The translations under genes were made by a program, and so were the position numbers. From contig JAIVJS010000021.1 in NCBI GenBank assembly GCA_020199905.1, positions 14,649-78,648 on the forward strand: a stretch of DNA of 64,000 nucleotides, in the 5' to 3' direction. The DNA is from Acidobacteriota bacterium (GTDB lineage: Bacteria > Acidobacteriota > Thermoanaerobaculia > UBA5066 > Gp7-AA6). The notes beneath the pieces were generated by a model that was not told the DNA's origin, searched no databases, and saw only the letters and a list, made by a program, of their open reading frames with translations. The stretch's first letter is position 1. The number at the start of each line of letters is the position of its first letter. Positions 30,526-63,911 of the stretch are shown in pieces.

Positions 30526-30567
30526 GTACCGCGGCCGTCTCGCTCCCGTTGGTCGCTCGGCTCCCGA
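30526..30567 (+). repeat. Dispersed REP-like element, copy 1 (partial)
   Basis: GTACCGCGGCCGTCTCGCTCCCGTTGGTCGCTCGGCTCCCGA, matching copies 3 and 4. Confidence 0.9.
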
Positions 30568-33016: not shown

Positions 33017-33096
33017 CCGGAGAACGGGAACCGGGAATCGGGAAACGGGAAGCGAAGGAAGGAAGGCGATCCTCGGGGAGAGGGCTGGAGTAAGGG
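33017..33096. repeat. Heptamer array plus partial CCCTCTCCC-type element
   Basis: GGAGAAC GGGAACC GGGAATC GGGAAAC GGGAAGC, then GGGGAGAGGGCTGGAGTAAGGG. Confidence 0.7.
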
Positions 33097-40051: not shown

Positions 40052-40121
40052 TCGTTTCCCGTTTCCCGTTTCCCGTTTCCCGTTTCCCGTCTTCGTTCGC
40101 CTGCCGCCTGCCGCCTGCCGT
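40052..40121. repeat. Heptamer tandem arrays
   Basis: CGTTTCC x5, then CGCCTGC x3. Confidence 0.9.
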
Positions 40122-43756: not shown

Positions 43757-46200
43757 CTATTTCGCCGAGAGCCAGTCGTGACCCGCGCCCACGTCGACCG
43801 CGAGCCTCACCCGGAGGCTGGCCGCGCCTTCCATGACCTCGCGCAGGAGCGACGTCAGGGTTTCGACCTCCCCGTCGGGCGACTCGAGCACGAGCTCGTC
43901 GTGGACCTGCAGAACGAGACGCGACGCGAGCCCGCGCTCTGCCAGCGTGTCGTCCAGGCGGACCATGGCGATCTTGATGATGTCGGCCGCCGCGCCCTGA
44001 AACGGCGCGTTCAGGGCCATCCGCTCCGCGTTCCCCCGCACGTTCGGGTTGGAGGCGGCGATGTCGGGGATGGGCCGGACCCTGCCGAAGATCGTCGTCA
44101 CCTCGCGAGTCCGGCGGGCCTCCTCGAGGATGCCGTCGAGGCAGGCGCGGACCCTCGGGAACTGCGCGAAATAGGAGTCGACGTAGCTCTTCGCCTCGGA
44201 CGTCGAGACGCCGAGCTCCTTGCCGAGCGTAAAGGGCGCCATGCCGTAGAGCAGCGCGAAGTTGATCCGTTTAGCGGCGAACCTCATTTCGTGGCTGACG
44301 AGGTCCGGTGAAACGCCGAAGATTTTCGCGGCGGTCGCGCGATGGATGTCCTGCCCCTCTTCGAAGGCGCGAATGAGGGCCTCGTCTCCGGAGAGGTGCG
44401 CGAGGATGCGCAGCTCGATCTGCGAGTAGTCCGCGACGACGAGCTTTCCGCCCGGGGGGGCGACGAACGCTTTTCGGATCTCGCGCCCGGCCTCCGTGCG
44501 AATCGGGATGTTCTGGACGTTCGGGTCGGAGGACGACAGCCGTCCGGTCGCCGCGACGGTCTGGCGGAACGAGGAATGCACGCGCCCCTGCGAGTCGGCC
44601 AGCGCGGGCAGGGCGTCGACGTACGTCCCCTTGAGCTTCGAAATCTCCCGGAATTCGAGCACGAGCTTCGGCAGGGGGAAGCCTCGCTCGGCGAGCTCCG
44701 TCAAGACCTCCACACCGGTCGAGGAGCTCCGGGTCTTCGCGGTCTTCTTGAGAACGGGGTAGCCGAGCTTCTCGAAGAGAATCTGCCCGAGCTTGACGGG
44801 GGAGTTCACGTTGAATTCCTCGCCCGCCTCCGCCCAGATCTTCTGCTCGATCGCGCGCAGGTCCTTTTCCATACGCGTCGATATCTCGCGCAGAAAAGGG
44901 ACGTCGACCGCGACGCCGGCGATTTCCATCCGCGCGAGCACGGGCGTCAGAGGCCTTTCGATCTCGCGGTAGATGCGGTCGAGCGCCGGCCTCGCGGCCA
45001 GCTCCTCGCGCAGCGGTTCGGCGAGGGCAAACGCCGCCGCCGAACGCTCGGCCAGCCAGCGGTCGGCATTCGCGATCTCGTAGGAGTCGGGCAGGGCGCA
45101 CGAGGAGATCCCCGCTTCCTTGTCGGAGAGCAGGCGCTGCCCGAGCCGCTGGAAGGCCATCGGCTCTAGGTCCGGGCTCGCGACGCCCGAAGAGAGGACG
45201 TATTGCGCCAGACACACGTCGAACAGGTTGCCGATGACGCGGAGGCCCGCGCGCGCGAGGAGTGCGTCGAGCGGCTTCGCGTCCGCCATCGCGAACGATG
45301 CCCCGGGCCGGTCGATCGCCGCCCACAGCTGCGCGACGCCGGCCGCGCCGGCCTCGGCGACCTGGGAGGCCGTGCCGTCCGAAAGGCCCAGAAGCGCGTC
45401 GCCCGCGCGGTTCAGGAGCGCAACGCCCGTCCAGCCGCCCGAGAGCGCGGGCGTCTCGCCGGCGGCCAGGCGCCGGGAGGAAACCTGCGGAGGCGCCGCG
45501 GAGTCTCCCTGGATCTCGGCCGCGAGCGAATGAAACTCGAGCCGGACGAAGATTTCCTTCAGGCGCGGGAAATCCGGCGGCGAGCAGCGCAGGTCTTCCG
45601 GGTCGAACGGGATCGGGAGGTCGGTCGGGATCTCCACCAGCCTCCGGGACAGGAGGGCGGCTTCGCGATTCTGCCGGAGGCTCTCTCCGACCTTTCCCTT
45701 GATCTCGTCCGCCCGCTCGAGAAGCGCGGTCAGGCTGCCGTATTCGAGGATCCACTTCTTCGCTGTCACCTGGCCGACCCCCGGTACGCCGGGGATGTTG
45801 TCGACGCTGTCTCCCATCAGGGCCAGCACGTCCGCGACCTGCGACGGCTTCACGCCGAAGAACGCCTCGACCCCCGCGTCGTCCAGGAAGGACTCCTTCC
45901 CGGTATGAAAGACGCGGACGCGCGGACCGACGAGCTGCAGCATGTCCTTGTCGGCGGTGACGATGACGACGTCGTACCCGGCCGTCGCGGCCTTAGCCGA
46001 CAGGGTGCCGATCACGTCGTCGGCTTCGTAGCCAGGAAGCTCGAGGATCGGGATCCGATACGCGTCCAGGAGGAGCCGGATGTCGGCGAGCTGGGAGGAG
46101 AGGTCGTCCGCCATCGCCACCCGGTTCGCCTTGTACTCGGCGTACGCGTCATGGCGGGCGGTGCGCTCGGGGCCGTCCCAGGCGATCGCGCACAGGTCGG
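43757..46200 (-). CDS. polA: DNA polymerase I, 5' end apparently missing
   Basis: YEADDVIG, GDSVDNIPGVPGVG, TGRLSSSDPNVQNIP, DYSQIELR, LQVHDEL. Homology starts abruptly at PDLCAIAWD; no LIDG..FRAY N-terminus in any frame. Confidence 0.9.
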
Positions 46201-46331
46201 GGGGCGGCGGAAAGGGCACTTCTGCCGGGCGATGGCGAGTCCGCTCCTCACTCGCAGGGCGGGAAGCGTGGTCTCCGGCGGAATCCAAGTCGCGGGGGCG
46301 CAGCGACTTGGCCCGTCCGAAGTTCCCGCAG

Positions 46332-46408
46332 AAAAGAAAACGCGCGACCCGTTGCCGGAGTCGCGCGATCATTGAAACCAGAATAACAAACGCGCACGGA
46401 AGAGTCAA
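46332..46408 (-). ncRNA. Candidate small RNA unit B (promoter plus about 42-nt hairpin transcript)
   Basis: TTGACT(46408-03)-N17-TATTCT(46385-80), then CGCGCGACUCCG-GCAA-CGGGUCGCGCG and UUUUCUUUU. Confidence 0.5.
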
Positions 46409-46564
46409 GACATTTCGAAAGGGGCGTTCCCGCGCGCCGCATCCCGTAAGACCCAATGAATTCGAGCTCACGACGCGACCCTTGCGAGTTTCTGTTCCAG
46501 GGCCGGGACGCCGGCCGGCGAGCCAGGGGAAACGGGGCCAGAGGGTTGCGGGAAGAACCGGCGG

Positions 46565-46644
46565 AAAAAAGAAATCGCGCGATCCGTTTCCGGAGTCGCG
46601 CGATCGAATGCAAGAACTCTAACAAACGCGCACGATACCGTCAA
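46565..46644 (-). ncRNA. Candidate small RNA unit A (promoter plus about 45-nt hairpin transcript)
   Basis: TTGACG(46644-39)-N17-TAGAGT(46621-16), then AUCGCGCGACUCCG-GAAA-CGGAUCGCGCGAU and UUCUUUUUU. Confidence 0.5.
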
Positions 46645-46743
46645 GCAAAATCGATCCGCGTTCCCTTCCGGTGTAACCGGCGTCTCGTGAGCGACTTGGG
46701 AGAATCAAACGCGTCGATTGCGCGCTGGAATCGTGCGATTCGC

Positions 46744-47373
46744 TCAGAAGCGCTTGCGAACCGAGGCGAGGATGTGTGCGCGCAGCCTCTGAGCGTCGTT
46801 CTGGATCTGCGCGGTCTCGCGCTGCATCTTCGCGACGAAGGCCGGGTCGGAGATTCCGGACAGGTTGACCCCCACGTTCAACAGCGCGCCTTCCGCGGCG
46901 GCCTCGAGAAGCAGGGCCGCCGAGCCCGCGTCGGACGCGGCGCTGGGATTGCCTTTTTCGACCAGCTCGGGAAGCGAGGCGAGCACGCGCGCGGCCAGCT
47001 GGGCGGTCCGCATCGGGACCTCCGTCGCCCGCCGATTCGCGATCGCCAGGGCATCGGCCCGGGCGGTCTTCTGGGAGTCGGTGTCCTTGCCGAGGCGGCG
47101 GGCGGCGACGACGAGCTCGTACGCCTCCGAGTCTTCGCGGGCGAGCTTCAGGAACTCCAGGCGCGCCGAGGCCGCTGTTTGCGCGATCGGGCGGACTGCC
47201 GCGTGGGATCCGACGTACTTGTCGCGCGTCAGGGTCAGGGCCGCGACCATCTCCATGAGGCTCGCACCCATGGCGCCCGCGATGGCGGCCGCAGTGCCTC
47301 CCCCGGGCGTCGGCGCGTCGGATCCGAGCGCGTCGATGAACTCGATGACGGTGAGCTTCGCGAACTCGGTCAT
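46744..47373 (-). CDS. Cyclodeaminase/cyclohydrolase (FTCD C-terminal domain) family protein
   Basis: FIDALGSDAPTPGGGTAAA, LAREDSEAY, KGNPSAASDA, LNVGVNL. Confidence 0.9.
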   Translation of the reverse strand: MTEFAKLTVIEFIDALGSDAPTPGGGTAAAIAGAMGASLMEMVAALTLTRDKYVGSHAAVRPIAQTAASARLEFLKLAREDSEAYELVVAARRLGKDTDSQKTARADALAIANRRATEVPMRTAQLAARVLASLPELVEKGNPSAASDAGSAALLLEAAAEGALLNVGVNLSGISDPAFVAKMQRETAQIQNDAQRLRAHILASVRKRF

Positions 47374-48643: not shown

Positions 48644-48790
48644 CGTTGAGCGTTGAAGGTTGAGCGTTGAGGTCGAGCGAAGGGCACGGGGTTTCAGGCG
48701 CCGGGCGAAGGCGAAAGGCGAAGGACGGGAGGGCGTCTCTCTCCGTATTTCCTTCGTTTCCCGTTTCCCGTTTCCCGTTTCCCGTTTCCC
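48644..48790. repeat. Heptamer tandem arrays
   Basis: CGTTGAG-type x4, GGCGAAG-type x3, CGTTTCC x5. Confidence 0.85.
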
Positions 48791-48810
48791 GACTCCTGAT
48801 TCCCGATCTC

Positions 48811-52436: not shown

Positions 52437-52473
52437 CGATTCCCGATTCCCGATTCCCGATTCCCGATTCCCG
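52437..52473. repeat. Heptamer tandem array
   Basis: GATTCCC repeated about five times. Confidence 0.9.
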
Positions 52474-53341: not shown

Positions 53342-53418
53342 TGGTGGGTCCACTCGGATTCGAACCGAGGTCTGACCGGTTATGAGCCGGTGGCTCTGGA
53401 CCGCTGAGCTATGGACCC
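53342..53418 (-). tRNA. tRNA with CAT anticodon, probably tRNA-Ile2
   Basis: GGGTCCATAGCTCAGCGGTCCAGAGCCACCGGCTCATAACCGGTCAGACCTCGGTTCGAATCCGAGTGGACCCACCA: 77 nt, TTCGAAT loop, encoded CCA. G1-C72 pair argues against fMet; Ile2 versus elongator Met is inferred. Confidence 0.9.
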
Positions 53419-57073: not shown

Positions 57074-57185
57074 GCCGGAAAATGGGAAACGGGAAGCCGA
57101 AGCCGGGAAACGGGAAGCGAGAAAAGAGAAACGAAAGACGGAAAACGGGAAATCTGTCTCGCAGCGGGCCGTCCCCGGAGATTTT

Positions 57186-63485: not shown

Positions 63486-63911
63486 GTGACGGAATTCCAC
63501 GTCCGGACGAAGAAGAAGATCGAGCGGCGCGACATCACGGATCTGGTCGTCGCGGCCGCCAGGGCGCTTGGCGTGTCGAGCGGCGCGATCCTCGTTTCGG
63601 TGCCGCACACGACCGCCGCGATCACCGTCGGGGAGAACTACGATCCCGACGTCACCACGGATCTCGAGCGGGCGTGGGCGAAGTGGGTGCCGGACGTTCC
63701 TTTCGATCACGAGGAAGGCAATTCCGCCGCGCATTTTCTGTCGGAGGCGATCGGGACGTCGCGCCTGGTGCCGGTCGACGACGGCGAGCCGAAGCTCGGA
63801 CGCTGGCAGGGGATTTTCTTAGTCGAGCTCGACGGTCCGCGGGAGAGGACGATCGAGGTCACGGCTCTCACGGGGTCGGAAAACGGGAAACGGAAAACGG
63901 GAAACGAATGA
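63486..63911 (+). CDS. yjbQ: YjbQ/UPF0047 family protein
   Basis: PHTTAAITVGEN.DPDV..DL, HEEGNSAAH, LGRWQGIFLVELDGPRER. Confidence 0.9.
   Translation: MTEFHVRTKKKIERRDITDLVVAAARALGVSSGAILVSVPHTTAAITVGENYDPDVTTDLERAWAKWVPDVPFDHEEGNSAAHFLSEAIGTSRLVPVDDGEPKLGRWQGIFLVELDGPRERTIEVTALTGSENGKRKTGNE

Follow-up and report, generated by a model that had tools for sequence, protein, structure and literature searches.

A conserved promoter–hairpin–U-tract unit upstream of polA in Thermoanaerobaculia, a candidate gene for a tiny RNA

The window, by which we mean the whole 64,000-nucleotide stretch of DNA that was analysed, comes from a member of the class Thermoanaerobaculia (Acidobacteriota), a label carried by all of the relatives that we retrieved. 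These are abundant soil and sediment Acidobacteriota known almost solely as metagenome-assembled genomes, and to our knowledge no regulatory RNA has been described in the class. Between a cyclodeaminase-like gene and the DNA polymerase I gene (polA), the minus strand of the window carries two units, each composed of a promoter, a GC-rich hairpin and a U tract, which are laid out as follows.

46744–47373, minus strand: upstream gene (209 aa), which from our own reading of the sequence we take to be cyclodeaminase/cyclohydrolase-like; the unit 1 hairpin would terminate the transcript of this gene as well.
46645–46652, minus strand: A/T-rich UP-like tract GATTTTGC, abutting the unit 1 -35 (read directly).
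46616–46644, minus strand: unit 1 promoter, with -35 TTGACG (46644–46639), a 17-bp spacer containing CGTGCGCGTTTGT and -10 TAGAGT (46621–46616).
46602–46576, minus strand: unit 1 hairpin of 27 nt, CGCGCGA-CU-CCG-GAAA-CGG-A-UCGCGCG (DNA CGCGCGACUCCGGAAACGGAUCGCGCG).
46575–46565, minus strand: unit 1 U tract AUUUCUUUUUU.
46565–46609, minus strand: predicted unit 1 RNA of ~44 nt, with 5' tail AUUCGAU, hairpin and U tract.
46409–46564, minus strand: inter-unit spacer, with CAACCCTCTG at 46548–46539 and the remainder poorly conserved.
46380–46408, minus strand: unit 2 promoter, with -35 TTGACT (46408–46403), a 17-bp spacer containing CGTGCGCGTTTGT and -10 TATTCT (46385–46380).
46367–46341, minus strand: unit 2 hairpin with a GCAA loop, CGCGCGACUCCGGCAACGGGUCGCGCG.
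46340–46330, minus strand: unit 2 U tract UUUUCUUUUCU.
46330–46373, minus strand: predicted unit 2 RNA of ~41–44 nt, with 5' tail AAUGAU, hairpin and U tract.
46285–46311, minus strand: small hairpin of 9 bp 3' of unit 2, CCAAGUCGC...GCGACUUGG (read directly).
43757–46219, minus strand: polA (DNA polymerase I), 5'-truncated, downstream of the units.

The original prediction had placed two minus-strand units of this kind here, and their coordinates, the comparison with shuffled sequence and conservation in relatives all bear this out. The two can be aligned over ~115 nt, from just 5' of the -35 through the U tract, and a repeat finder gave 89% identity between copies lying 235 nt apart, the spacing first given as 236 bp being better stated as 235–236 nt. 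An identical sequence had been reported in both spacers before the -10, and the 12-mer GTGCGCGTTTGT does indeed match exactly. The predicted start of unit 1 (A at 46609) is placed from the position of the -10 and its 3' end from terminator anatomy, the start of unit 2 (A at 46373) is likewise a predicted one, and the gap between -10 and hairpin is 13 nt in unit 1 and 12 nt in unit 2. The hairpin had been drawn with an unpaired CU, however, in most relatives this C pairs with the 3' G, and a more accurate drawing has a lower stem of 8 bp, a bulge of 1 nt, an upper stem of 3 bp and a tetraloop. In close relatives the CAAG...CUUG of the small hairpin after unit 2 is kept (direct reading of the alignment), and CAACCCTCTG in the inter-unit spacer corresponds to a block found after the unit in relatives. 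The statement that no open-reading frame lies within the units stands for real genes only: mechanical open-reading frames at 46468–46644 and 46248–46625 do overlap them, but indels that are not multiples of three, together with low conservation against the 96–97% identical relatives, argue that neither is real. Aligned relatives showed no conserved start or reading frame for a small gene between the units or between unit and polA.

Both units stand out sharply from the surrounding DNA. A 30-nt hairpin pattern with up to three mismatches occurred twice in the window against a mean of 0.00 over 100 shuffles. The only sigma-70-like promoter matches between 40 and 52 kb were the two unit promoters (0.3 expected), each matching the sigma-70 hexamers at 9 of 12 positions across a 17-bp spacer, as is expected of a sigma-70-type promoter; TTGAC-N16-18-TAnnnT has only four matches in the whole 64 kb, two of which are the units, and the element would be driven by one of very few near-consensus promoters in the window. 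Unit 1 has a predicted folding energy of -23.6 kcal/mol (z -4.1) and unit 2 one of -21.4 kcal/mol (z -2.7); the hairpin of unit 2 was also listed by a terminator scan, and both units show the anatomy of an intrinsic terminator, a stable GC-rich hairpin (-21 to -24 kcal/mol) with a U tract directly 3'. A covariance model built from relatives (R1), a check that had been proposed at the outset, recovered both units from the whole window at 65.2 bits (unit 1) and 59.8 bits (unit 2), and the next best match, at 14.8 bits, was the units' own reverse strand.

Searches of Rfam 15 with the locus itself, the intergenic region of a relative and the entire window returned no family at or above its gathering threshold at the element, tRNA-Met being the only family found in the window. 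The unit is undescribed, has not previously been catalogued and matches no Rfam family. The best match was ROSE_3 (RF02523), whose gathering score of 43 is well above the 20.9 and 15.9 bits obtained; the units' 5' hairpin, GC-rich and similarly shaped, aligns with the first helix of ROSE. Unlike ROSE_3, the units have neither a second helix occluding the Shine-Dalgarno sequence (SD) and AUG nor a heat-shock gene, and a ROSE thermometer was rejected for its sub-threshold score and wrong context. No similarity of the element to phage or plasmid records was found. Among public sequencing runs, no RNA run held the window locus or the high-coverage relative L109, and the DNA runs held only relatives at 90–95% similarity.

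The distribution of the element was followed in genomes and metagenomes. Scanning one genome per species for the exact hairpin returned 21 loci, all in Thermoanaerobaculia or Acidobacteriota, and in each of them the promoter precedes the hairpin. A further 80 loci were fetched through the cyclodeaminase protein, which avoids selection on the hairpin itself, and nearly all of these carry the hairpin within six substitutions. When distinct species loci that include the 5' end of polA were pooled, the unit lay upstream of polA and on the same strand in all 86, with six apparent exceptions proving to be indel variants of the unit. When the genome collection was searched with a degenerate hairpin pattern, 80 stretches were returned, in which every acidobacterial match but one (L160) is the polA locus; four matches in other phyla, with no cyclodeaminase-like gene or polA in the vicinity, appear fortuitous. 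Metagenome contigs searched in this way yielded 80 promoter-bearing units, scoring 52–73 bits with the covariance model, and polA follows on the same strand in 69 of the 69 contigs with enough downstream sequence, the commonest distance being ~230 nt, whilst seven further matches, lacking both promoter and neighbouring polA, look like chance. The whole architecture is conserved class-wide, and the original prediction, which was to fall if relatives lacked the element, survives on this point. It had, however, pictured free-standing small RNA genes at an arbitrary place, and this part has to be given up: the element is single-locus, class-wide, specific to Thermoanaerobaculia and tied to polA. 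Four loci (L032, L033, L067, L139) have an insertion of ~2.5 kb separating the unit from the cyclodeaminase gene and in two others a different gene lies upstream (L092, L099), yet in all six the unit sits ~220 nt from polA, so it is with polA that the unit travels.

The one exception, at L160:2937-2968, is the only degenerate-hairpin match in Thermoanaerobaculia away from polA; its hairpin AUCGCGCGGCUCCCGUUUGGGGCCGCGCGAUU has no promoter, is flanked by repeated GCTCCACTCGT and is probably unrelated to the polA-linked unit.

A single unit is the general state in the class and would be the ancestral one. Two units are present in the window and in L022-L026, L029, L034, L054 and L117, and three in L027 and L028, and these species are exactly those in which polA is at least 83% identical to that of the window. 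As copy number tracks polA identity in this way, the pattern points to an ancestral tandem duplication in the subclade of the window, with a further one in L027 and L028, and the early suggestion that the two window copies are paralogues is borne out. Promoter, hairpin and U tract are intact in every copy, including old and diverged ones in L034, L054 and L117 (for example CGCGCGGCACCCAUCGGGGCCGCGCG in L054).

These distributions also bear on another explanation, that the units are a chance resemblance, an assembly artefact or the end of a dispersed repeat or mobile element. A 216-bp deletion in the nearby polA (described below) makes a local assembly problem conceivable, but the two-unit arrangement recurs in independent assemblies of ~12 related species, the window holds only two matches in 64 kb, genome- and metagenome-wide scans place the element at the polA locus only and phage and plasmid records hold nothing similar, such that we give this explanation almost no weight. 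A dispersed repeat (REP or MITE) or mobile-element end was rejected specifically, on account of the one locus per genome and the lack of phage or plasmid similarity.

The anatomy of the family was computed over 105 homologous units. TTGAC is present in 105 of 105, mostly as TTGACA, the 17-bp spacer in 98 and TAnnnT in 99; an A/T-rich tract of consensus GATTTTTC is conserved just 5' of the -35 across 104 units, and the spacer motif CGTGCnnGTTT is conserved class-wide in the 105. The distance from -10 to hairpin is 13 nt in 83 of the 105 units, which implies a likely start ~7 nt 5' of the hairpin. An aptamer upstream of the hairpin had been ruled out from the start on this ground, and the family supports that exclusion: with a gap of only 13 nt and no Rfam match, the unit lacks what a riboswitch or aptamer attenuator would need. 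The consensus RNA reads 5'-AUUGAAU-CGCGCGAC-(A/U)-CCG-loop-CGG-GUCGCGCG-UUUUGUUUUUU. The 27-nt hairpin is nearly invariant against ~56% identity in the flanking intergenic DNA, which places the element among the most conserved non-coding sequences at the polA locus, and the U tract is kept in all units inside DNA of 64–70% GC. Loops vary widely. GNRA tetraloops, to which the original prediction drew attention, occur in both window copies and in many species, but they do not define the family, as relatives carry AUGA, ACGA, AGAA, AAGA, AAAG, AAAA, UAAA, UUCGA-type and 5–6-nt loops and an AAA triloop. A CsrA-type GGA loop was considered and rejected because the GCAA loop variants have no GGA.

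Within the main helix 98% of cells are paired, against 22–55% in slid controls. The pair closing the lower stem changes from A-U to G-C in nine sequences and to G·U in five, both the adjacent pair and the basal pair switch among C-G, U·G and U-A, and G·U or U·G occupies 21 cells of the main helix. As G·U pairs correspond to C·A mismatches on the other strand, the constraint falls on the RNA made toward polA. Compensatory and wobble pairing on the transcribed strand is thus what is expected of a structured RNA, limited by the 6 of 11 pairs that never vary: the central GCGCG/CGCGC is invariant, and this core, uninformative for structure, would signal a sequence-specific constraint.

The function could in principle lie mainly at the level of DNA, with the hairpin serving as a terminator that insulates the polA promoter from upstream transcription or its inverted repeat as a protein-binding site, the two TCGCGCGA octamers lying about two helical turns apart and the promoter exerting local polymerase or topology effects instead of yielding a useful RNA. 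The site lies between two co-directional genes, where a terminator is expected, its core CGCGCG never varies, TCGCGCGA is itself palindromic (direct reading) and its distance to the polA promoter is constant. However, a plain terminator needs no conserved near-consensus promoter 13 nt upstream, nor are plain terminators normally sequence-invariant among species whose intergenic DNA is ~56% identical, and both the G·U wobbles and the A-U to G-C swaps preserve pairing in the RNA at the expense of the octamer palindromes. Duplication of the full unit is also left unexplained, and we regard a function at the DNA level as improbable. A replication origin or dif-like site was a separate candidate, rejected because the skew has no inflection here and the promoter architecture is at odds with such a site.

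The fixed position next to polA calls for a closer look at what lies between. In relatives ~200 nt separate the last unit from the start of polA, and the unit-to-polA distance has its mode at 229–233 nt, in ~40 of 80 loci. Directly before the polA start, CCATAGAATCCGG is almost invariant (e.g., L014:2210-2238 and L061:3940-3965), and TAGAAT or TACAAT stands 7–10 nt before the start in 83 of 86 loci, none of which has an SD-like motif there; the remaining three also have a -10-like box, but with a longer N-terminal extension. This suggests that polA mRNA may be leaderless or nearly so and transcribed from its own promoter throughout the class. Two partly conserved blocks occupy the interval, written CAACCnnCTGAGCG..TTCCACTT and GCGCGCCAAAgggccgTTTCG or, with their positions (e.g., L041:3850-4010), as CAACCnnCTGAGCGnnTTCCACTT ~25 nt downstream of the U tract and GCGCGCCAAA-N6-TTTCG ~50 nt before TAGAAT. 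A larger structured RNA running from the start site to polA was rejected, as RNAalifold on 50 aligned leaders predicted the 5' hairpin only and no conserved structure between hairpin and polA.

The principal alternative to an independent gene is a promoter-proximal attenuator of polA, in which the unit promoter would be the main polA promoter, most transcripts would stop at about +45 and a trans-acting factor would permit read-through of ~200 nt into polA, the tiny RNA being a by-product. The factor might be an RNA-binding antiterminator that recognises the 5' half, which is invariant, or a modifier of polymerase recruited through the conserved spacer. Constant position and co-orientation, as in a polA cis leader, are exactly what was observed: linkage to polA is exclusive (86/86 and 69/69 loci), the unit stays with polA where the upstream gene is displaced or replaced, the spacing is modal, partly conserved blocks lie in between and the near-invariant stem and conserved spacer fit sequence-specific recognition. 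Against this, a start ~7 nt before the hairpin leaves no upstream sequence for an alternative fold, and since nothing would be transcribed 5' of the hairpin an attenuator would need a new antitermination factor. A polA leader would also have its ribosome-binding site within it and no promoter of its own further downstream; going by the sequence, neither holds, as polA has its own perfect -10-like box at a leaderless distance and never an SD, and ribosomes would have difficulty with a long leader lacking one. TAGAAT moreover survives in L015, L005 and L094, where most of the intervening sequence is missing. Finally, tandem copies are retained with full promoters, although an extra terminator and promoter upstream should be near neutral for a leader. 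On balance we think the attenuator unlikely, though it deserves to be taken seriously. An antiterminator fold for transcripts of the upstream gene was considered separately and rejected: the spacer variant GUGCGCG could pair with the 5' stem, but the majority form GUGCCCG would not.

We favour instead the reading of the unit as an autonomous tiny RNA gene, to which we give about an even chance. As proposed, a near-consensus housekeeping promoter (A/T-rich UP-like tract, TTGACA, 17-bp spacer, TAnnnT) would begin transcription ~7 nt before the 27-nt GC-rich hairpin, which with its U tract would act as a strong intrinsic terminator, releasing an RNA of ~41–45 nt made up of a 6–7-nt 5' tail (class consensus AUUGAAU), the hairpin and a U tail. 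The window units would be the local form of a single-copy element upstream of polA, which a tandem duplication in the subclade's ancestor multiplied, with all copies kept since. The RNA itself would be functional, either as a minimal small RNA with a short 5' seed and a hairpin serving as terminator and chaperone-binding site, or as a protein-binding hairpin, and as a side effect the hairpin would end transcription from the upstream gene and shield polA's own leaderless-looking promoter. What the analysis shows directly is the sequence anatomy, the conservation of all its parts, the strand-specific RNA pairing, the exclusive polA linkage and the keeping of duplicates; promoter firing, terminator efficiency, RNA stability and what the RNA binds are predictions. 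The unit has the features of a small RNA gene, being intergenic and conserved with its own promoter and its own terminator. In favour of this reading over the attenuator are the -10-like box of polA combined with the lack of an SD, the absence of a conserved RNAalifold structure between hairpin and polA, and the retention of full tandem copies, which favours selection on a product or its dose over a leader; an upstream duplicate would add little to a polA leader but would double the RNA dose or allow sibling RNAs. Other observations pull against an autonomous RNA: the unit is always found with polA and at a tight modal spacing, as a cis-acting element would be, 6–7 unpaired nucleotides are at the lower limit for a seed, and the invariant GCGCG/CGCGC, where there is no covariation signal, exceeds what a terminator or chaperone module needs. 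If real, the RNA would be among the shortest conserved bacterial small RNAs and would offer a handle on polA regulation or RNA chaperone biology.

Known systems resemble the unit in part. OmrA/OmrB of enterobacteria and PrrF1/PrrF2 of Pseudomonas are tandem sibling small RNAs of 80–150 nt, with longer seeds and known regulators and targets. Like them, the units are tandem paralogues that each carry a promoter and an intrinsic terminator of their own, with conserved 3' hairpins and divergent 5' ends (AUUCGAU vs. AAUGAU); unlike them, the predicted RNA is little more than a terminator hairpin with a 6–7-nt tail and always lies beside polA. The minimal module of Hfq-binding small RNAs consists of an A/U-rich stretch, a hairpin and a poly(U) tail, and FinO/ProQ ligands consist of a stem-loop with short 5' and 3' tails. 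The predicted unit RNA, with its short A/U-rich 5' tail, GC hairpin and 3' U tail, resembles both, a likeness by anatomy alone, but its stem sequence is conserved far beyond the needs of such modules. Spot 42 (spf) of Escherichia coli, a 109-nt small RNA, also has its gene permanently beside polA and oriented alike, but downstream of it; the units lie upstream, are structurally unrelated to Spot 42 and have no Rfam match.

Promoter-proximal terminators that work without an aptamer are known from the Bacillus subtilis pyrG leader (reiterative transcription) and from lambda PR'-tR', where the '6S' transcript is extended by Q antitermination. The units share with these a strong promoter followed soon by an intrinsic terminator, which would give a short transcript unless modified, and with the lambda Q-binding element a conserved element within the promoter spacer. 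They differ from pyrG in that they do not begin with a homopolymer (GGG or TTT) on which reiterative transcription could occur, from lambda PR'-tR' in that the initial TTGAAT/TTCGAT lacks the -11 A of a sigma-dependent pause element and there is no phage context or similarity, and from both in that the downstream gene, polA, has its own -10. A sigma-dependent pause with Q-like antitermination was rejected on these grounds, the initial TTGAAT without the -11 A being read directly.

A more specific form of the autonomous RNA would explain its permanent linkage to a core replication and repair gene. The ~45-nt RNA would be a dedicated partner of DNA polymerase I, since its single-stranded 5' arm, rigid GC duplex and 3' tail resemble the flap or bifurcated substrates of the Pol I 5' nuclease; it could be an abundant ligand or decoy tuning Pol I, or a factor acting on the leaderless polA message. 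We consider this a long shot, which if true would introduce a new class of enzyme-linked tiny RNA.

In the window, polA itself is incomplete. Compared with L012, L013 and L014, whose polA is 96–97% identical, the window lacks 216 bp at ~46203/46204, comprising polA's own promoter (TACAAT box) and the first 58 codons, which encode the N-terminal part of the 5' nuclease domain. Homology to the polA of relatives starts at ~46203, the nearest possible start being an in-frame GTG at 46219, from which the remaining gene could be translated without that part of the domain. Contigs of related strains in public runs leave the window sequence exactly at 46203 and continue into an intact polA; as these runs hold related strains only, the deletion may be real or an assembly error.

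One further feature of the window touches on the spacer that the units share.

53342–53418, minus strand: tRNA-Met gene, with a putative promoter upstream to ~53470.

The putative tRNA-Met promoter (...GTCCCGCTTTGCTATATT) is similar to the units' spacer and -10 (GTGCCCGTTTGTTAGACT), and contains ...CCCGCTTTGCTATATT, which is close to the units' shared spacer. The shared spacer, which had been suggested as a regulator site, is conserved class-wide and might be one, but because the tRNA-Met promoter looks alike, the motif may instead be a general strong-promoter or extended -10 feature of the lineage and not a site dedicated to the units.

Several other intergenic regions of the window contain perfect heptamer arrays, (CGTTTCC)x5 and (CGATTCC)x5, at 40053–40090, 48755–48791 and 52437–52473, and in complement form at 33023–33051, 57076–57152 and 63877–63906. 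A dispersed repeat of 30–60 nt, GTCTCGCTCCCGTTGGTCGCTCGGCTCCCG, present at 30537, 48830 and 57644, adjoins some of these arrays.
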